DNA of 64,000 nucleotides from an uncultured Coriobacteriales bacterium (GTDB lineage Bacteria > Actinomycetota > Coriobacteriia > Coriobacteriales > QAMH01): assembly GCA_934646835.1 (NCBI GenBank), contig CAKUES010000003.1, forward strand, positions 16,500 to 80,499, in the 5' to 3' direction. Within the stretch, counting starts at the first letter, position 1, and every line of letters begins with the position of its first letter. A model generated the notes under the pieces. The model did not search any database. It saw nothing but the letters and a program-made list of their open reading frames with translations, and was not told the origin of the DNA. Shown piece by piece: positions 10,141-53,294 of the stretch. The position numbers and the translations under genes were made by a program.

Positions 10141-10194
10141 GGGCGGCAGCGGCTCAGCGTTGAGCTGCAGCTAGTGTTTAGACTTTGGTCCTTC

Positions 10195-10298
10195 GTGACA
10201 CACTTTGTGCCAGTGACATTGTGTATCACGCCGTCGAGTCGTAGGTTAACGTAAGCTTTCTGCGTGATACACAATGTCACTGGCACAAAGTGTGTCAC
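10195..10298. repeat. family-1 repeat, long form (two inverted 35-nt modules + 34-nt spacer centred on GTTAAC)
   Basis: GTGACACACTTTGTGCCAGTGACATTGTGTATCAC...GTGATACACAATGTCACTGGCACAAAGTGTGTCAC. Confidence 0.9.
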
Positions 10299-10349
10299 GG
10301 CGCTGGGTCGCAGGGTCTCGCAATCGCGTCTCCTGTACAATAGCTCCTT

Positions 10350-12161
10350 ATGGAACAGATCATCCTTCAGATAATCGAGCTGCTGCGTGCGGGCGAGGCG
10401 GTTGACGACGCGAAGATCACGTCGTTGTGCCGTGCCGCCAACGCGGGTGTGGCCGATGTCTCCCGTCATATCTCGAAAAAGAAGCTCATGCCCTTCTATC
10501 TGCGCGTTCATGAGAACGAGCCGGGGCGCTGGGAGAGCTGGGGCCTTGACGATGCACTCGAGGAGCAGCTGCTTGCCGTCCTCAAGACCAAGCCCGGCCG
10601 AACAGCGAGCGGTGTTGCCACCATCACCGTCATCACCAAGCCCTGGCCCTGTGGAAGCAACTGCCTCTACTGTCCCAATGACCTGCGCATGCCCAAGAGC
10701 TACATTTACGACGAGCCGGCCTGTCGTCGTGCAGAGCGCAGCTTCTTCGACCCGTACCTGCAGGTGGCAAGCCGCTTGTTCACCCTCGAGCAGATGGGGC
10801 ATGTGACCGATAAAATCGAGCTCATCGTGCTCGGCGGCACTTGGACCGATTATCCAGCCGATTACCGGCTTTGGTTTATTCGCGAGCTCTTCGCCGCGCT
10901 CAATGACGACGCCCAAGCTCGCTGTGCCAAGTGTGCAAAGCTCCGCGCGGCATATGCTGATGCTGGCGTGAGCTGCGATGATGATGAACTTGCGCGACAG
11001 GTTGTCGCGCTTCAAGAGCGTGTGAATATAGGGGAGCTCAACTACAACGATGCCTGGCCTGCGCTCTATGGTCCCAAGACGAGTGCTTGGCCTACAGCGG
11101 CGCTGTGGCAGCGTGCGACTATGGACGAGGTCTTTGCTCAGCATACCCTCAACGTCGACGGCGCCCACCGCGTCGTCGGTCTCGTGGTCGAGACCCGCCC
11201 AGAGACACTTGACGTCGACGTACTGACCGAGCTGCGCGCCCTAGGCTGCACCAAGGTGCAGATCGGTGTGCAGACGCTCGACCCTGCGGTCATGTGTGCC
11301 AACCATCGCCCCAGCACCATCGAGCAAATCGAGCGTGCCTTCGCCTTGTTGCGCGCCTTTGGGTTTAAGATTCACGCGCATTTCATGGCCAATCTCCATG
11401 GCTCGACTCCTGAGTCCGACATCATCGGCTACCGCCGTTTTGTGACCGAGTCGCCCTATCAGCCCGATGAGATCAAGCTCTACCCTTGCGCACTCATCGG
11501 CGGCACGGGTTTGGAGCGGCTCTACAACCAGGGGCTTTGGCGACCGTACACGGAAGACGAGCTCCTCGAGGTGCTCGTTGCGGACACGCTTGCAACGCCG
11601 CCTTTCATCCGCATCAGCCGTATGATCCGTGACTTTAGCGCCGATGATATCGTCGCTGGCGTCAAGAAGACGAACTTCCGCCAGATGGTCGAGCGCGAGC
11701 TTGAGGACCGCCGCGGCGAGGTGAGCGAGATCCGCTTCCGCGAGATCGGCAGCGCCAAGGTGAGCGCCGACGAGCTGCGCATGACGGACTACCGCTATGA
11801 GACCGCTTTCACGTGCGAGCACTTCCTGCAGTGGGTTGACGGGCTGGGGAGGATCGCGGGCTTCTTGCGCCTCTCGCTGCCCGAGTCGTCGATGTGCGAT
11901 GAGCTGCGCGGCCTTCCTCAGCCATTGGGCCAGGCGATGATCCGCGAGGTCCATGTTTACGGCAAGGCCACTGCGATTGACCATGAGGGCAAAAGCGCTC
12001 AGCACATCGGCCTGGGCAGACAGCTTGTCGAGCATGCCTGCGAGCTTGCCCGTGATGCGGGTTTTGCGAGCATCAACGTCATCAGCGCCGTGGGAACGCG
12101 CAACTACTACCGCAAGCTCGGCTTTGCGGAAAACGGCCTCTACCAGAGTCGCGAGCTGTGA
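10350..12161 (+). CDS. elp3: Elp3-type tRNA U34 modification enzyme (radical SAM + GNAT)
   Basis: 603 aa. Radical-SAM CxxxCxxC (CGSNCLYC). Elp3-like blocks DPYLQV, KIELIVLGGTW, YRLWFIRELF. C-terminal GNAT (HIGLGRQLVEHACELA...YYRKLGF). Confidence 0.85.
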   Translation: MEQIILQIIELLRAGEAVDDAKITSLCRAANAGVADVSRHISKKKLMPFYLRVHENEPGRWESWGLDDALEEQLLAVLKTKPGRTASGVATITVITKPWPCGSNCLYCPNDLRMPKSYIYDEPACRRAERSFFDPYLQVASRLFTLEQMGHVTDKIELIVLGGTWTDYPADYRLWFIRELFAALNDDAQARCAKCAKLRAAYADAGVSCDDDELARQVVALQERVNIGELNYNDAWPALYGPKTSAWPTAALWQRATMDEVFAQHTLNVDGAHRVVGLVVETRPETLDVDVLTELRALGCTKVQIGVQTLDPAVMCANHRPSTIEQIERAFALLRAFGFKIHAHFMANLHGSTPESDIIGYRRFVTESPYQPDEIKLYPCALIGGTGLERLYNQGLWRPYTEDELLEVLVADTLATPPFIRISRMIRDFSADDIVAGVKKTNFRQMVERELEDRRGEVSEIRFREIGSAKVSADELRMTDYRYETAFTCEHFLQWVDGLGRIAGFLRLSLPESSMCDELRGLPQPLGQAMIREVHVYGKATAIDHEGKSAQHIGLGRQLVEHACELARDAGFASINVISAVGTRNYYRKLGFAENGLYQSREL

Positions 12162-17084: not shown

Positions 17085-17735
17085 ATGTCCAAGATGGAAG
17101 CGGTATTGTTCGACCTCGACGGAACCCTGGTCGATACCTACGACCTCATCCTCGCCAGCCATCGCTACGCCACGCGCACCGTGCTCGACCGCGTCATCAG
17201 CGACGAGCGCCTCATGTCGACCGTGGGAACGCCCCTTGAGGACCAGATGGCGGATTACACGGACGACCCTGCCGTAGTGGCAGAGCTTTGCGCGGTCTAC
17301 CGCGAGCACAACGCCCGCGTTCACGATGAGCTGATCAAGAGCTTCGACGGCGTCACCGGCCAGCTGGACGACTTGCGCTGCGCAGGTGTGCGCATGGGCA
17401 TCGTTACCTCCAAACGCGCCGACGTTGCTCGAAAGGCGACCGACCTCTACGGCATCACGCCGTATATGGAGTGCATCGTCGGCGGTTCTGACACGCCGCT
17501 GCACAAGCCCAATCCCGATCCCATCCTCAAGGGCTGCGAGCTCATGCGCATCGACCCACTGCGCAGTGCCTACGTCGGCGACAGTCCCTTCGACATCATG
17601 GCCGGCAACGCTGCCGGCTGCAAGACGCTTGCTGTGACCTGGGGAATGTTTGCCGAGGACGTGCTCGTTGCCGAGCATCCCGTCGCCGTCGCCCATCGCA
17701 TGGACGAGATGGCCAGCGCGCTGCTCGCGTTGTAG
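17085..17735 (+). CDS. HAD-IA hydrolase (PpaX/Gph-like phosphatase)
   Basis: ORF 16908..17735 trimmed to ATG 17085. Motifs LFDLDGTLVDT, VTSK, YVGDSPFDI. Confidence 0.8.
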   Translation: MSKMEAVLFDLDGTLVDTYDLILASHRYATRTVLDRVISDERLMSTVGTPLEDQMADYTDDPAVVAELCAVYREHNARVHDELIKSFDGVTGQLDDLRCAGVRMGIVTSKRADVARKATDLYGITPYMECIVGGSDTPLHKPNPDPILKGCELMRIDPLRSAYVGDSPFDIMAGNAAGCKTLAVTWGMFAEDVLVAEHPVAVAHRMDEMASALLAL

Positions 17736-17755
17736 CGAGGGTCTATTTGCCAAGG

Positions 17756-17857
17756 CCTGTCCCAAAATGCACCTGGTCTTTTATGGGACAGGGGATGTTG
17801 CAAATTGCTCGCAGCTCGCCCTGTCCCATAAAAGACCAGGTGCATTTTGGGACAGGG
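17756..17857. repeat. family-3 nested palindrome
   Basis: CCTGTCCCAAAATGCACCTGGTCTTTTATGGGACAGGG-loop-CCCTGTCCCATAAAAGACCAGGTGCATTTTGGGACAGGG; begins 20 nt after the HAD stop. Confidence 0.9.
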
Positions 17858-18019
17858 CGTCGCTTTGGTCGAGCCGTTCGCCGCCGCATTGCGGACGCGC
17901 TCGCTTCTCCATTCCCCGTCGAAAATCGACAGTTGCGCTTGATGTGTCGATGTTTACATGCAATGTACATGCATCTCATCTATAATCCACATCAAAACTA
18001 CTGACTATTTGGAGTATCA

Positions 18020-18217
18020 ATGGCTGGAATCAACGTCACCATCCGTATCGACGAGGACCTCAAGAAGCAGGCGGACGCGCTCTTTGACGAGCTGGGTCTG
18101 TCCTTCTCCGGCGCCGTCAACGTCTTTGTCCGTCAGGCTCTGCGCGAGGACGGCCTTCCCTTCGAGATCAAGCGCGACAAGCGCCCTGTGCGCGAGCAAG
18201 ACTCAATCGAGGGCTAG
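18020..18217 (+). CDS. RelB/DinJ-family type II antitoxin (no adjacent toxin gene)
   Basis: 65 aa. VTIRIDEDLKKQADALFDELGLSFSGAVNVFVRQALREDGLPFEI is collinear with E. coli DinJ. A TATAAT lies at 17981-17986 upstream. Confidence 0.8.
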   Translation: MAGINVTIRIDEDLKKQADALFDELGLSFSGAVNVFVRQALREDGLPFEIKRDKRPVREQDSIEG

Positions 18218-18230
18218 GGGAGGGCAGTCG

Positions 18231-19166
18231 ATGACGCTTCAGCAACTTCGCTATCTCATCGCAATCGCGGAGTGCGGCTCCATCAGCGGCGCCGCCCACG
18301 ACCTCTTCGTCTCGCAGTCGAGCCTCTCGGTCGCCCTCAAGGAGATCGAGAACGAGACCGGCGTCACGGTCTTCCAGCGCTCCAACCGCGGCATCACCAT
18401 CACGAGCGAGGGTATCGAGCTGCTCGGCTACGCTCGTCAGGTCGTGGAGCAGGCAGACCTTCTCGAGCAACGCTACCAGCGCGGCGAGGAGGACGTCCCC
18501 CAGAGGCTGTCCGTCTCAACCCAGCACTACACCTTCTGCGTCGAGGCCTTCGTCAACATGGTCGAGGCCCTCAACGCCGACGAGTACAAGTTCACCCTGC
18601 GCGAGACCCGCACGGCGGAGATCATCGACGACGTGAGCGAGTTCCGTAGCGACATCGGCGTGCTCTACCTCGACAAGTTCAACAACCGCGTCCTCTCCAA
18701 GGCGCTCGACAACGCGAACCTCACCTTCACCTCGCTGTTCAAGTGCAAGCCGCATGTCTTCGTCGGCGAGCATCATCCGCTGGCCAATCGCAAGAAGCTT
18801 GTAATCGACGATCTTGCGGAGTACGCGCGCTACTCCTTCGAGCAGGGCACGAACAATTCCTTCTACTACAGTGAGGAGCCGCTGAGCTCGCTGCCGCACA
18901 AGAAGCGCATCGTCATCTCCGACCGCGGTACGCTTTCCAACCTGCTTACCCACCACAACGGCTACACCGTGTCGACCGGTGTCCTCTCGAGCGAGATGCA
19001 CACGGGCATCGTCTCCATTCCCTTGGAGACCGACGAGGAGATGAACATGGGCTACGTCATGCACGCGGAGCGCAAGCCCAACGCGCTCGTGCTGCGCTAC
19101 ATCGACGCCCTCAAGGAGCAGATCGCGACTTACAGCATCGACAACGCCATGGAGACGGCGGAGTAG
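18231..19166 (+). CDS. LysR-family transcriptional regulator
   Basis: ORF 17958..19166 trimmed to ATG 18231. HTH is MTLQQLRYLIAIAECGSISGAAHDLFVSQSSLSVALKEIE. Confidence 0.9.
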   Translation: MTLQQLRYLIAIAECGSISGAAHDLFVSQSSLSVALKEIENETGVTVFQRSNRGITITSEGIELLGYARQVVEQADLLEQRYQRGEEDVPQRLSVSTQHYTFCVEAFVNMVEALNADEYKFTLRETRTAEIIDDVSEFRSDIGVLYLDKFNNRVLSKALDNANLTFTSLFKCKPHVFVGEHHPLANRKKLVIDDLAEYARYSFEQGTNNSFYYSEEPLSSLPHKKRIVISDRGTLSNLLTHHNGYTVSTGVLSSEMHTGIVSIPLETDEEMNMGYVMHAERKPNALVLRYIDALKEQIATYSIDNAMETAE

Positions 19167-35540: not shown

Positions 35541-35936
35541 ATGAGTGACGAGAGCAAAGAGATGATGTCGGAGATGTCGGAGCAAGCGGGGGAGGCCGGC
35601 GCCCCTTCCGGCGCGTGTCCCATCCATCGCTGGCAGGAGGCGGTTGAGATGATGCCGAACGAGGAGATCCTCTACGAGCTCGCGGACCTCTTCAAGGTCT
35701 TCGCTGACAGCACGCGCATCAAGATCCTCTTCGCGCTGATGGACGAGGAGATGTGCGTGGCCTGCATCGCAGAGACGATCGACGCGAGCCAGAGCGCGGT
35801 CTCCCATCAGCTGCGCGTGCTCAAGCAGGCGCGCCTGGTGAAGTTTCGCCGTGAGGGAAAGCAAGTCGTCTACTCGCTTGCAGACAACCACGTCCACACC
35901 ATGCTCGCCCAGGGCATGAACCACGTCTGCGAGTAA
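35541..35936 (+). CDS. ArsR/SmtB-family metal-sensing repressor
   Basis: ORF trimmed to ATG 35541. LFKVFADSTRIKILFAL..EMCVACIAE...SQSAVSHQLRVLK. Confidence 0.9.
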   Translation: MSDESKEMMSEMSEQAGEAGAPSGACPIHRWQEAVEMMPNEEILYELADLFKVFADSTRIKILFALMDEEMCVACIAETIDASQSAVSHQLRVLKQARLVKFRREGKQVVYSLADNHVHTMLAQGMNHVCE

Positions 35937-35971
35937 GGAGCGGACGTCGATGCGGGCGTCGCACCCCGTTC

Positions 35972-36072
35972 GGTGTCCCATTCGGACCTGGTCTTTTTTG
36001 GGACAGGGAGAGCGGCTAATGGGGTGCAGCCTGCTCTGTCCAAAAAAAAGACCAGGTCCCGAATGGGACACC
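35972..36072. repeat. family-3 nested palindrome (between the repressor and HMA genes)
   Basis: GGTGTCCCATTCGGACCTGGTCTTTTTTGGGACAGGG-loop-CTGTCCAAAAAAAAGACCAGGTCCCGAATGGGACACC. Confidence 0.9.
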
Positions 36073-36120
36073 TCGCAGGATTCATTTCATCCATCCACCC
36101 CAACCCCAAAGGAGCATCCC

Positions 36121-36339
36121 ATGAAGAAGTCTTACAAGCTCGAGAACCTCGGCTGCGCCAACTGCGCTCGCAAGATGGAGGAGGGCATCAGCGCGCTTGC
36201 CAACGTCAACAGCGCCAAGGTGGTCTTCATGACCGAGAAGCTCGTCCTCGACGTGGTCGACGGCACCATGGACAGCGTCCTCGACGAGGCTCAGAGCATC
36301 ATCAGCCGCTATGAGGACGATTGCGTCATCGTCCGCTAG
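36121..36339 (+). CDS. stand-alone heavy-metal-associated (HMA-like) domain protein
   Basis: 72 aa. YKLENLGCANCARKMEEGI has the CadA-type N-terminal domain pattern. ORF trimmed to ATG 36121. Confidence 0.8.
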   Translation: MKKSYKLENLGCANCARKMEEGISALANVNSAKVVFMTEKLVLDVVDGTMDSVLDEAQSIISRYEDDCVIVR

Positions 36340-38345: not shown

Positions 38346-38449
38346 GTGACACACTTTGTGCCAGTGACATTGTGTGTCATACAGAAGACCCACGTTAACC
38401 AGCAAGCTCACGGCATGACACACAATGTCACTGGCACAAAGTGTGTCAC
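38346..38449. repeat. family-1 repeat, long form
   Basis: Ends 10 nt from the RAYT stop codon. Spacer is centred on GTTAAC. Confidence 0.9.
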
Positions 38450-38458
38450 GGGAACTCG

Positions 38459-39184
38459 TCATTGCGAGAGAATTCGATGCACTGTTGATCTTGAGACTCC
38501 GGTCAATCTCGCTATCTGGGCTTTGGTGAAGCCGTTGTCAGACAGCTTTCTCACGGAAGCGTCTCTAGAGGCCATGTCCAGACCTTTTACTGTGGTTGGG
38601 CTATCGAGGCCCAGAATGCGCTTTGCTTCTTCCACTGCGTCGTTGTCAGTTGTCCGGAGTCCTTGGTACAGGGTTTTCTTGCTAAAACCGGTGCAGTCTT
38701 GCTTATCAGACAAGTCAATCATCAGAGAATCATCCAGCAGGAAGCGCTTACCGCAGTATTCCTGGTAGCTGCTCCAACGATAACTTGCAGGATGCTCGAC
38801 GATTTGAGCCCTGACCGGATTATTGTGGATGTAGTGAATGGCTGCGGCGAGGTATGATTCGCTCGCGATGGGAAAGCTGCTAAAGGTTCCTTGGAACAAG
38901 TGTCCGGTCCTAGAGTGTCTTCTATTTATGTCCTTGGCGTATCTCTCTTTGACCTGCTTCATTGCTGGCGTTATGTCTTCAAGTGGTGCCATCACTAGAA
39001 GATGGAAATGGTTGTCCATTAGGCACCAAGCGGCAACTTTGATGTCGTGTGCAACGCAAGCCTCTTTGAGCAAGCGCAGAAAATGGCGCCTGTCGTCATC
39101 ATCTTCGAAGATTATCTGACCGCCAACTCCGCGGCTGGTCACGTGATAGAGATTGCAGAGACTGATTTTGCGCGGTCTTGCCAT
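38459..39184 (-). CDS. IS200-fold HUH/Y1 transposase-like protein (REP-associated tyrosine transposase candidate) with C-terminal HTH
   Basis: 241 aa. YHVTSRG..., HUH motif DNHFHLLV, GHLFQGTFSS, catalytic-Tyr helix AIHYIHNNPVRA, and C-terminal AQIARLTGVSRSTVHRIL. Confidence 0.8.
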   Translation of the reverse strand: MARPRKISLCNLYHVTSRGVGGQIIFEDDDDRRHFLRLLKEACVAHDIKVAAWCLMDNHFHLLVMAPLEDITPAMKQVKERYAKDINRRHSRTGHLFQGTFSSFPIASESYLAAAIHYIHNNPVRAQIVEHPASYRWSSYQEYCGKRFLLDDSLMIDLSDKQDCTGFSKKTLYQGLRTTDNDAVEEAKRILGLDSPTTVKGLDMASRDASVRKLSDNGFTKAQIARLTGVSRSTVHRILSQ

Positions 39185-39277: not shown

Positions 39278-39392
39278 ATGACACACTTTGGACACACTTT
39301 GTGCCAGTGACATTGTGTGTCACGCAGAGCGTTTGCGTTAACCTGCGGCTCCCTCCCGTGACACACAATGTCACTGGCACAAAGTGTGTCAT
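39278..39392. repeat. family-1 repeat, long form with an 11-nt partial duplication (GACACACTTTG x2)
   Basis: Begins 94 nt upstream of the RAYT start. Spacer is centred on GTTAAC. Confidence 0.9.
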
Positions 39393-50753: not shown

Positions 50754-50852
50754 CCGTCCCAAAAAGGACCTGGTCTTTTGTGGGACAGGGGCAGGTCGCG
50801 GGTCTTTGCGCATCTCCACGTCCCATAAAAGACCAGGTCCTTTTTGGGACGG
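50754..50852. repeat. family-3 nested palindrome
   Basis: CCGTCCCAAAAAGGACCTGGTCTTTTGTGGGACAGGG-loop-CGTCCCATAAAAGACCAGGTCCTTTTTGGGACGG; begins 18 nt after the PAP2 stop. Confidence 0.9.
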
Positions 50853-50954: not shown

Positions 50955-53294
50955 ATGATCGATCTTTCCACGCTCAACCCTGGGCAATACGACACCGTTG
51001 CGACGACGGAGGGCCCGCTGCTCGTCCTCGCTGGCGCCGGCAGTGGAAAGACCCGCGTCCTCACCTACAGGATCGCTCACCTGGTCGAGGACTTGGGCGT
51101 CATGCCTTGGGAGATTTTGGCTGTCACCTTTACCAACAAGGCCGCCAAGGAGATGCGCGACCGTCTCTCGAAGCTTTTGCCCATGGGGATCAAGGGCATG
51201 TGGATCAACACCTTCCACAGCATGTGCGTGCGTATCCTGCGCTCGGATGGCGAGCGCCTGGGCTACACCAAGGACTTCACTATCTACGATGCAGACGATA
51301 CCAAGCGCCTGGTCAAAGACATCATGTCGGAGCACGGCTTCGACACCAAGCGCTACCCGGAAAACGCCGTCCGCAGCCGTATCAGCGCAGCTAAAAACGA
51401 TCTCAAGCTCCCCGGCGACATGCCTCAAAACGAGCCCTTCGCCAAGGTCGTCGCAACGGTTTACAAGGCCATGCAGACCAGGCTCAAGCGTGCCAATGCC
51501 ATGGATTTCGACGATTTGCTCCTCAACACCTACCTGCTCTTCAGGGACAACCCGGACCTTGTCAACTCCTACGGCATGCGCTTTCGCTACATCCTCGTAG
51601 ACGAGTACCAAGACACCAACGGCGCGCAGTACGCCATCACCAAGATGCTCGCCAAGGTGCAGGGTAACCTCATGGTCGTTGGCGACGACGACCAGAGCAT
51701 CTACAGCTGGCGTGGCGCGGATATCCGCAACATCCTCGATTTCGAGCGCGACTGGCCCCAGGCAAAGACCGTCAAGCTCGAGCAGAACTACCGCTCCTCT
51801 GGCAACATCCTCGAGGCTGCCAACGCCGTTATCGCCAACAACACCTCCCGCAAGGCAAAACGCCTGTTCACGGATAGCCCCGCTGGCGAGAAGATCCGCC
51901 TCTACCTTGCGGCTGACGAGCGCGACGAGGGCCGCTGGATCGCATCGGAGATCGAGAAGCTCCATGACAAGGGTACGAGCTACAACGACATGGCCCTCTT
52001 CTACAGGACCAACGCGCAGTCCCGTACGCTCGAGGATATGTTCCTGAGGGCCGGTGTGCCTTACCAGATCGTCGGTGGTACGAGGTTCTTCGATCGCGCG
52101 GAGATCCGCGACTGCATGGCTTACCTCAAGCTCGTCGTCAACCCTGCGGATGATATCTCAGCCCTGCGCGTGATCAACACCCCAAGGCGCGGCATCGGCA
52201 AGACGACGGTTGAGCGCATTCAGTACGCGGCCAACATCCGCGGCATCTCCTTCATGGACGCAGCGCGCGAGGAGTCCCTCGACCCCGCATGCAGGGCCAA
52301 CACCCGCAAGGCGCTCGAGAGCTTTATCGGTATCATCGATGAGTGCCGCCGCTACAGCGGCGAGCTCGATAAGGTCGTCGACATGATCATCGAGAGCACG
52401 GGTCTCATCGGGGCACTGCAGGCACAGCGCTCGGAGGAGGCAGATGCCCGCATCGAGAACATTCGAGAGTTCGTGAGCGTCGTCCAGGAGTATGCGGAGT
52501 CTCACCCGGAGATCGTGGAGGAGGACCTCGGCGACAACCCGGAGCAGGCGCTGCTCTCCGGCGTCCAGGTCACCACGCGCAAGCCCACCCTCGCGGACTT
52601 CATGGAGTGGCTCTCCCTGCGCAGCGACCTCGACTCCGTCCAGGACAACGACGAGATGGTCACCCTCATGACCATCCACAGCGCCAAGGGCCTCGAGTTC
52701 GATGTCGTCTTCGTCGCCGGCATGGAGGAGAGTATCTTCCCCCACAGCAACTCCGTCCAGGAGCGCGGGGTGGAGGAGGAGCGCCGTCTGGCCTATGTCG
52801 CTATCACACGTGCGCGCAAAAAGCTCTACCTCACGCATGCTCAAACGCGCCGTCTCTTTGGCCAGCCTCAGGCCAATCCGCGCAGCCGCTTTATCAACGA
52901 GATGCCCAAGGAGCTGCTGGAAAGCGATGGCATCGGGTCGCGCGGTATCACCGGCACTGGCTGGGAGAAGCGCGGGGACCGTCACAGCACCTATGGCAGC
53001 GGTCGCGGCGAGGATATGTACGGTGGCCGCGTCTACGGCAAGGGCACCAGGATAGAGGGGTCTTCTTCCTCTTCCAAGCCGAGCAACGGCGTCACCTCGC
53101 GCTTTGCCAAACCCGCCGCGAGTACCGTCGCGGGCAACGAGGAATTCTCCGTGGGCGACACCGTCGACCATAAGACCTTCGGCATAGGCCAGGTGGTTGC
53201 CATCGAGGGCGACAAGCTCTCGATCTACTTCGCCAAGTCCGGCCAGATCAAGAAGCTGCTCAAAGGCTACGCACCGATCGTCAAGGTCAACTAG
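50955..53294 (+). CDS. pcrA: ATP-dependent DNA helicase PcrA/UvrD
   Basis: 779 aa. GAGSGKT, VDEYQDTN, and the SF1 motifs throughout. Confidence 0.92.
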   Translation: MIDLSTLNPGQYDTVATTEGPLLVLAGAGSGKTRVLTYRIAHLVEDLGVMPWEILAVTFTNKAAKEMRDRLSKLLPMGIKGMWINTFHSMCVRILRSDGERLGYTKDFTIYDADDTKRLVKDIMSEHGFDTKRYPENAVRSRISAAKNDLKLPGDMPQNEPFAKVVATVYKAMQTRLKRANAMDFDDLLLNTYLLFRDNPDLVNSYGMRFRYILVDEYQDTNGAQYAITKMLAKVQGNLMVVGDDDQSIYSWRGADIRNILDFERDWPQAKTVKLEQNYRSSGNILEAANAVIANNTSRKAKRLFTDSPAGEKIRLYLAADERDEGRWIASEIEKLHDKGTSYNDMALFYRTNAQSRTLEDMFLRAGVPYQIVGGTRFFDRAEIRDCMAYLKLVVNPADDISALRVINTPRRGIGKTTVERIQYAANIRGISFMDAAREESLDPACRANTRKALESFIGIIDECRRYSGELDKVVDMIIESTGLIGALQAQRSEEADARIENIREFVSVVQEYAESHPEIVEEDLGDNPEQALLSGVQVTTRKPTLADFMEWLSLRSDLDSVQDNDEMVTLMTIHSAKGLEFDVVFVAGMEESIFPHSNSVQERGVEEERRLAYVAITRARKKLYLTHAQTRRLFGQPQANPRSRFINEMPKELLESDGIGSRGITGTGWEKRGDRHSTYGSGRGEDMYGGRVYGKGTRIEGSSSSSKPSNGVTSRFAKPAASTVAGNEEFSVGDTVDHKTFGIGQVVAIEGDKLSIYFAKSGQIKKLLKGYAPIVKVN

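Follow-up and report, generated by a model that had tools for sequence, protein, structure and literature searches.

Systems of REPs (repetitive extragenic palindromic sequences), REPINs and REP-associated tyrosine transposases (RAYTs) have been worked out almost wholly in Proteobacteria. In Pseudomonas fluorescens SBW25, Bertels and Rainey (2011) described REPINs that have a conserved spacer length and show compensatory changes (PMC3116915). The REP/BIME units of Escherichia coli consist of a REP and an inverted REP with a linker between them (Corneloup et al. 2021, PMC8266576; Messing et al. 2012, PMC3479197), and TnpAREP reads loop and bulge positions of folded single-stranded REPs (PMC8266576); secondary roles of these REPs in mRNA stability and termination are known as well (cited in PMC8266576). 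TIRtrons, or TIRYT systems (Di Nocera et al. 2013), are RAYT-like genes flanked by non-GTAG inverted repeats that sometimes form dispersed families (PMC3733652). Imperfect inverted repeats are also subject to quasipalindrome template switching, a replication error in which one arm is rewritten to match its partner and the spacer may become inverted (PMC7202029; PMC8604942). The subject here is Family-3, a palindromic repeat of about 100 nucleotides (nt) with three copies in a 64,000-nt stretch of DNA from an uncultured Coriobacteriales bacterium (assembly GCA_934646835.1, contig CAKUES010000003.1, positions 16,500 to 80,499), called the window below. Family-3 is probably a REPIN-like element, non-coding and selfish or semi-domesticated, that consists of an inverted doublet of a ~31-nt REP-like module and was spread in the past by an HUH tyrosine transposase. 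The literature searched contained nothing that links RAYTs to Coriobacteriia.

The window corresponds to G000:C3:16500-80499, where G000 is the 2.13 Mb genome (60.7% G+C, 41 contigs) and C3 the contig. Its three copies are as follows.

17756-17857, no strand assigned: Family-3 copy 1, a doublet (G000:C3:34256-34354) scoring 109 bits with covariance model R1; left arm 17759-17789, spacer 17790-17822, right arm 17823-17853, with the stem extended by CCT/AGG.
35972-36072, no strand assigned: Family-3 copy 2, a doublet scoring 83 bits with R1; left arm 35975-36004, right arm 36038-36069.
50754-50852, no strand assigned: Family-3 copy 3, a doublet scoring 93 bits with R1; left arm 50756-50786, right arm 50820-50850.

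The sequence of an arm runs Y-GTCCCA, then a variable block of 7 nt, then CCWGGTCTTTT, N and TGGGAC, and the partner arm is its reverse complement. In the window copies the left arm is GTCCCA-N7-CCTGGTCTTTT-N-TGGGAC(AG), followed by a spacer of ~33 nt and then by the arm's reverse complement. Taken as a module of ~31 nt, the arm comprises GTCCCA, a linker of 5-7 nt, GACCWGGTC as its palindromic core, TTTTN and TGGGAC. The variable blocks of copies 1, 2 and 3 are AAAATGC, ATTCGG(-) and AAAAAGG, and the partner arm carries the complement of each, with a 1-nt difference between the arms of copy 2 (CGG in the left arm, CCCG in the right). The three copies and this arm layout, first noticed in the original prediction, are confirmed in the sequence. 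Arm matches in the window number seven against 0.15 expected, a count that no shuffle reaches (24-nt pattern, at most 3 mismatches).

Conservation is sharply partitioned along the element. Mean pairwise identity among the 19 doublets of the genome is 0.26 in the flanks, which is random, and 0.44-0.50 at the two positions that border the arms externally. It is 0.85-0.95 in the outer hexamer GTCCCA/TGGGAC, 0.51-0.55 in the variable block, 0.94-0.95 in the constant block CCWGGTCTTTT, 0.31 at the N position, 0.90-0.98 in the inner hexamer and 0.44 in the spacer, which is constant in length (32-34 nt) and free in sequence. The spacers gave too weak a signal to orient the elements consistently. The stem commonly continues for one or two variable base pairs past GTCCCA, and columns 7:106 are C-G in 10 copies and U-A in six. 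The whole doublet of each window copy is predicted to fold into a single long hairpin, with DNA energies of -43 to -54 kcal/mol (z -11 to -14) and RNA energies of -71 to -89 kcal/mol; a lone arm folds weakly, at -7 to -9 kcal/mol as DNA (z -2.7 to -3.9). The nested palindrome proposed earlier is therefore real, but among its folds the doublet hairpin dominates.

No target-site duplication was found at the nine copies checked, where terminal direct repeats are 0-3 nt long and inconsistent. Such an absence is expected for IS200/IS605-type chemistry. It speaks against a classical miniature inverted-repeat transposable element (MITE), that is, an insertion sequence (IS) that has lost internal DNA, is bounded by terminal inverted repeats and depends for its movement on a DDE or IS200 transposase from another locus of the genome. 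Family-3 is small, has inverted ends, occurs in many copies and lacks coding capacity, as a MITE would, and the genome does encode a separate, classical IS200-type TnpA at G000:C1:88945-89403. The entire element is nevertheless a single inverted repeat rather than unique DNA framed by short inverted ends, and the covariance model found no longer parent element. The flanks of the IS200 TnpA gene lack the Family-3 motif, which removes IS200 as the parent element, and a MITE origin is highly improbable. Integron attC sites and CRISPR repeats were also rejected: the copies are singly dispersed and form no array, an R'/R'' core is missing, and the context holds neither an integrase nor cas genes.

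A genome-wide census and a covariance model, both proposed with the original prediction, establish a true repeat family that extends well beyond the three window copies, and the refuting case named there, a family of just those three, does not hold. By pattern and regular-expression searches the genome contains 19 two-arm copies and at least six (about 6-8) single arms, ~44 arms in all. A covariance model for which 18 copies were used finds every one of the 19 doublets, at 61-109 bits. The family is confined to one species. The arm core is absent from six congeners and ~34 further relatives. A search of 185,579 species genomes gave 61 single arm matches in unrelated taxa, against ~140 expected by chance on our own estimate, and JGI metagenome contigs gave no doublets and three single arm matches, two of which, on reading, are chance matches, non-palindromic and coding-looking. 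The core doublet GACCWGGTC-N30-60-GACCWGGTC occurs 19 times in the genome. In 400 other genomes of the order, none of which yielded the family, it gives single hits only, and those listed are non-palindromic stretches, nearly unchanged across many genomes and apparently coding. The orthologous gap between the HAD and relB genes, which holds copy 1 in the window, is 150-220 nt shorter and without the element in congeners G001 and G006, although these gaps are too diverged (coding identity ~75-82%) to place insertion boundaries.

Within the species the element is fixed at every locus compared. Other strains were taken from gut-metagenome assemblies by exact-protein look-up, which allowed five of the 19 loci to be compared; one of these strains is 98.7% identical to the window strain over 20.7 kb. 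More than 150 public assemblies (155-180 index blocks) contain the species. Family-3 is present at all five loci (copies 1-3, G000:C3:16062 and G000:C3:4350) in every strain seen. Copy 1 is kept in six other strains, with three substitutions that all lie within the inner stem or spacer, and copy 3 is identical in two other strains. From the species-restricted census and this occupancy it follows that Family-3 is species-specific and fixed; its expansion would fall between speciation and the divergence of today's strains.

The two arms of each copy change together. Across the 19 copies, standard pairs fill 89.7% of pair cells against 81.3% after shuffling, and 74 cells are changed on both sides against 33; neither value is reached in 500 shuffles, and shifting the partner columns abolishes the signal. 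Set against the reverse complement of the right arm, the left arm of the same copy shows on average 1.7 differences over 32 positions, and six of the 19 copies show none; for arms of different copies the average is 6.0. Pairing is complete, in 19 of 19 copies, even at the N position, which varies freely. The same behavior is visible between strains. Copy 2 in strain L088 has one C fewer in the right arm, which makes its variable blocks exactly complementary. At C3:16062 one strain clade has a left-arm G>T matched by a right-arm C>A, together with an unmatched C>T that gives T.G; the chance of a matched pair among three arm substitutions there is P ~0.02 by our own rough estimate. Compensatory arm changes across copies, as originally described, are thus real, but they do not by themselves establish selection on RNA structure. 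The covariance-model score is near-equal on both strands, and mismatches on the sense strand of the upstream gene comprise 23 G.T and 18 A.C, with no wobble bias. Because of this strand equality and lack of G.T excess, the covariation points to a constraint at the level of DNA, not of RNA. Two DNA-level causes fit: the hairpin as the substrate of an enzyme, or a quasipalindrome replication error that copies arm onto arm. Hairpin-templated copying, already raised with the first description of the element, is therefore a live explanation.

The location of the copies is one argument for an RNA function. HAD, ArsR-family and PAP2 genes do lie upstream of the three window copies. Copy 1 follows the HAD stop by 20 nt and precedes a RelB-like gene; copy 2 stands 35 nt from the stop of an ArsR-type (HTH_5) repressor gene (35541-35936) and before HMA and P-type ATPase genes; copy 3 follows the PAP2 stop by 18 nt and precedes uvrD/pcrA (50955-53294). 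The distance of 18-35 nt from a stop codon holds for these three, but not as a rule, since the nearest stop lies 12-215 nt away genome-wide. With genes outside the window called by a codon-usage caller, flanking genes are co-directional at 13 doublets, convergent at six and divergent at none; divergent gaps make up 18% of intergenic length, so their avoidance by all 19 has P ~0.02. Twelve of the 13 co-directional cases are closer to the upstream stop than to the downstream start (binomial P ~0.002). The neighboring genes are ordinary or housekeeping (rpsI, pgk, pfk, mraZ, uvrD and others), and all arms lie outside credible genes: called overlaps come from over-long open reading frame (ORF) starts, as with ORF 35950-36339, where the real HMA start is 36122. 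Downstream of copy 1, a listed 402-codon ORF at 17958-19166 is likewise an artefact, and the genes really present are a RelB/DinJ-type antitoxin-like gene (65 aa, 18020-18217) and, ~14 nt on, a LysR-type regulator that is 311 aa in strain annotations.

A host-selected RNA element would account for this placement. Family-3 could act as a U-tract-independent terminator, a block to 3'-5' exonucleases or an RNase III site, copy 2 could be an attenuator between the repressor and HMA/ATPase genes, and the covariation would then reflect selection on RNA structure. The copies sit behind stop codons and avoid divergent promoter regions, the predicted RNA hairpins are very stable, the loci are conserved in all strains seen, two of the three copy-1 strain differences yield G.U-compatible pairs on the sense strand, and the E. 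coli REPs are known to have such roles secondarily (cited in PMC8266576). The details of the element fit less well. A U-tract is missing at most copies, the sole clear T-run on a right flank being that of C7:35607 (...GCTTGCTATTTTTT), and a terminator scan at copy 1 returned merely an unrelated small hairpin at 17724-17739. The 37-bp stem far exceeds the needs of termination, and its pairs are nearly all Watson-Crick, although one mismatch in a stem of -50 kcal/mol or more would barely affect stability and could hardly be visible to selection for it. The strand-alike scores and the lack of wobble bias run the same way, the family is absent from all congeners at orthologous gaps, and the invariant 11-nt block and the single-arm copies are left unexplained. 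A host-selected RNA element is therefore unlikely as the origin of the family. Intrinsic (Rho-independent) termination is not supported for most copies, where no U-tract directly follows the stem, and the terminator or attenuator function first suggested finds no backing in an element that is also strand-symmetric. An Rfam search, likewise suggested at the outset, gave no family match at gathering score; in E-value mode miRNA-precursor models alone appeared, at about half their thresholds, a generic effect of long hairpins. A secondary effect on mRNA 3' ends is plausible from the position of the copies, most so at copy 2 in the arsR-HMA-ATPase gene row.

The constant block, singled out earlier as a possible recognition site, is indeed special. 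Its palindrome GACCWGGTC also centers a second family, [TTGAACG]-[4-5 nt variable]-GACCWGGTC-[4-5 nt variable]-[CGTTCAA], with ~9 doublets of 75-80 nt (loop 5-9 nt) and several singles. Here too the variable blocks are matched in the partner arm, for example TTTTA/ACATG against CATGT/TAAAA at C3:129787. Its doublets include the following, all outside the window.

C3:129787-129838: second-family doublet.
C3:145672-145723: second-family doublet.
C5:41421-41472: second-family doublet.
C7:66417-66468: second-family doublet.
C12:51659-51710: second-family doublet.
C18:30486-30539: second-family doublet.
C25:22416-22467: second-family doublet.
C2:106042-106093: second-family doublet.

A core hybrid lies at C4:133823-133902, and perfect single palindromes occur at C35:~1487-1515 and C5:35780-35814. 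Because the core is common to two families with unrelated stems, it appears to be a conserved handle to which interchangeable stems are attached, as expected of a protein recognition site.

Such a handle might equally be read in duplex DNA. Each arm would then be a ~31-bp dyad operator (GTCCCA-N5-GACCWGGTC-N5-TGGGAC) for a dimeric nucleoid-associated protein, a regulator or the helix-turn-helix (HTH) domain of a RAYT, with sites ~64 bp apart serving chromosome organization or regulation. The perfect palindrome, invariant amid varying flanks in two families with different stems, the constant arm spacing and the perfect single palindromes around the core (G000:C35:1497 and C5:35780) are all in keeping with this. 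Sites 64 bp apart need no mutual complementarity, however, yet the arms co-vary at non-conserved positions. The family is limited to one species, the RAYT is the sole linked candidate protein, and CCWGG is neither depleted nor otherwise unusual in the genome. Duplex binding as the basis of Family-3 is accordingly quite improbable. The observed/expected ratio of CCWGG, 1.01, also led to rejection of a restriction-modification or Dcm site.

A candidate for the enzyme that would have spread Family-3 lies in the window, 2.4 kb from copy 2, a proximity that the original prediction did not connect with the repeat.

38459-39184, minus strand: RAYT-type HUH/Y1 transposase gene, 241 aa with a C-terminal HTH; candidate mobilizing enzyme.
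38346-38452, no strand assigned: Family-1 doublet with arms GTGACACACTTTGTGCCAGTGACATTGTGTGTCAC, on one side of the RAYT gene.
39278-39391, no strand assigned: Family-1 doublet, on the opposite side of the RAYT gene.

The protein scores 82.6 bits against NCBIfam NF047646 (REP_Tyr_transpos; cut-off 80) and also matches Pfam Y1_Tnp, and its translation contains HFH (the HUH motif) and HYIHNNP (the catalytic Tyr in YxxxNP context). It is the sole RAYT of the genome by tblastn. Family-1 shares the build of Family-3 in a different sequence, with ~34-nt weakly hairpinning arms and a ~36-nt spacer.

Relatives supply further evidence for a link between Family-3 and this class of enzyme. Of 32 genomes in the taxonomic family, 17 encode RAYT homologues, and RAYTs that are 76-78% identical (P0002, P0003) exist in sister taxa. 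Inverted hairpins, for example TGGGACAAATGACCTGTCCATTTGTCCCA (G009) and TGAGACAGATGTACCTGTCCAATGTGTCTCA (G023), flank the homologues with 36-44% identity. These flanking hairpins share the vocabulary of Family-3: TGGGAC/GTCCCA stems, 4-5-nt A/T-rich linkers and a GAC(C)WGGTC(C) center. The G009 stretch GGACAGGTCATTTGT aligns with GGACCTGGTCTTTTGT of Family-3. The Family-3 model also matches 74-nt palindromes in four genomes of another genus, with E-values, which are rough, of 1e-9 to 4e-11, and these palindromes have 19 nt exactly in common with the G009 RAYT flank. As the model gives no hit on the abundant Family-1 hairpins of its own genome, the matches in relatives reflect sequence and not hairpin shape alone. 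In that other genus, palindromes of 74-88 nt (TGGGACAGGGGGACAGGTCATTTGTCCCAC...GTGGGACAAATGACCTGTCCCCCTGTCCCA) occur in few copies per genome (G009:C1:87133-87206, 266773-266860 and 1869223-1869296; G021, G042 and G044; loci L099-L102, L105 and L106). A second RAYT-like clade (266 aa, 29-33% identical to the window RAYT) has no detected flanking inverted repeats; its genes lie at G009:C1:380483-381208, G021:C1:11629-12354 and G023:C10:123294-124022 and in G046, G044 and G047 (L119, L121-L125).

The genome as a whole stands out for its wealth of REP-like families, all of them alongside one RAYT gene. In its k-mer table GTAGGGGAGGGACCCTGTCCCTCCCCAT occurs ~190 times, GTAGGCGCCAGACGAAGTCGGCGCCAT ~120 times and the Family-1 arm ~100-130 times, and at least three smaller families are present. 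Some of these repeats vary between strains. In the gap between the HAD and radical-SAM genes (window 10141-10350), a 45-nt unit (GAAGGATTTGACCGCGACCCAGCGCCGTGGCACAAAGTGTGTCAC) beside a Family-1 doublet is missing in the window strain and present once or several times in tandem in others (L130, L131, L135). Part of Family-1 therefore varies in strain copy number; Family-3 does not. Left of the window, at ~G000:C3:13980-14420, a 63-nt unit with a TCTGAACGATT... hairpin repeat is found twice in some strains and once in others, a tandem copy-number polymorphism (L127 5710-6149 against L129/L131). At G000:C6:78440-78520 a single Family-3 arm abuts a Family-1 arm and spacer, which suggests that a Family-3 arm was destroyed when one element inserted into or beside the other. 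The idea of a palindrome-flanked DUF559/Vsr-like nuclease was dismissed: a single weak PF04480 match (17 bits, below cut-off) was obtained, and it does not lie beside Family-3.

For Family-3 we infer both a link to such an enzyme and a mode of copying. DNA exposed as a single strand at the replication fork would allow the module or the whole doublet to fold, and an HUH tyrosine transposase of RAYT/TIRYT type would recognize the constant core or loop and cut and rejoin single strands without target duplication. This enzyme may be the RAYT at 38459-39184 or a lost paralogue nearer to the G009 type. Expansion would have taken place after the split from the congeners and before strain divergence, leaving a family that is now presumably nearly static. 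The arms would stay complementary if the hairpin is the substrate, if template switching in quasipalindromes copies arm onto arm, or both. Selection may have purged insertions in promoters and genes and so left copies behind stop codons, where a transcribed hairpin may secondarily affect mRNA 3' ends.

Several observations weigh against this account. The sole RAYT is flanked by Family-1 and not by Family-3, of which copy 2 is the closest. No GTAG/CGTC tag stands beside Family-3 arms, where the outside positions are variable (Y/R at -1/+1), and other repeat families of the genome do begin with GTAG. The likeness to the RAYT-flank hairpins of relatives covers a short sequence, and the stem hexamers come in swapped order. 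No recent movement is seen, as the five examined loci are filled in every strain, and the copies are mutually diverged (spacers 44% identical), while other repeat families of the region vary between strains. Family-3 thus appears to work like a REPIN but is not filed as one half of a proven REPIN-RAYT pair, because no RAYT is flanked by the same sequence, the GTAG/CGTC tag is missing and no movement is seen at the five loci compared.

A bolder extension, possible but doubtful, concerns how the arms stay matched. Beyond any selection for pairing, one arm may be rebuilt physically from its partner, either through snap-back or template-switch synthesis as the element propagates or through repair of its folded form. 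The GACCWGGTC core may be the handle that allows a single RAYT/TIRYT-type enzyme, perhaps by means of its C-terminal HTH, to act on several families whose stems are unrelated and which have no GTAG tag. If true, arm regeneration and a shared core handle would together constitute a distinct recognition and copying mode for REP-type elements.

In this gut actinobacterium one RAYT gene coexists with several doublet families that look unrelated but are built alike, and two of these have a 9-bp palindromic core in common; the case bears on the relation of one domesticated transposase to several repeat populations. Family-3 is also a practical warning to those who search for RNAs by covariation that compensatory changes in a repeat do not have to imply RNA structure: the signal here is strand-symmetric, is seen between strains ~1% apart and can be produced by template-switch mutagenesis. 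For annotation, elements of this type cause spurious ORF extensions and break metagenome assemblies.

The kind of element is already known, and the original statement that Family-3 matches no known element stands for its sequence, which has no Rfam family, but not for its kind, since its build is that of a REP doublet (PMC3116915). New for Family-3 are its genome-wide census, its restriction to one species, a core common to two families with unrelated stems, a sequence link to the RAYT-flank hairpins of a sister genus, and strand-symmetric covariation that continues at strain level.

A comparison with the described systems shows how far each of them reaches. Template switching would yield "compensatory" changes without selection, and it fits both the symmetric strain-level changes of Family-3 and the occurrence of spacers in either orientation inside a single sub-lineage. 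Template switching is a process of mutation, however, and no element family, and it leaves dispersal and the invariant core unexplained. E. coli REPs depend on GTAG and on a CT site for cleavage, whereas Family-3 has no such tag and its arms are near-perfectly complementary; reading of loops and bulges in the manner of TnpAREP would nonetheless suit an invariant block set on variable stems. Unlike the repeats of TIRtrons, Family-3 flanks no transposase gene in this genome, yet the RAYT homologues of its relatives, flanked by inverted hairpins in the Family-3 vocabulary, have just that arrangement.

REPINs are the closest match, despite clear differences. Family-3 lacks the GTAG head, the sole RAYT is flanked by another family (Family-1), the copy number is ~20 and not hundreds, a hypervariable block lies inside each arm beside the invariant palindromic core, no excision or insertion polymorphism is seen at the five loci compared, and the host belongs to the Coriobacteriia (Actinomycetota). 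What the two share is the architecture itself. Both are extragenic repeats in a genome with a single-copy RAYT gene, and both have doublets that outnumber singlets (19 against about 6-8 for Family-3, with fold z of -11 to -16). Compensatory changes are common in both, and in Family-3 spacer identity is 0.44 against 0.94-0.98 for the constant blocks. As in REPINs (PMC3116915), inverted palindromic units surround a spacer that is conserved in length and not in sequence, and the whole is predicted to form one long hairpin.

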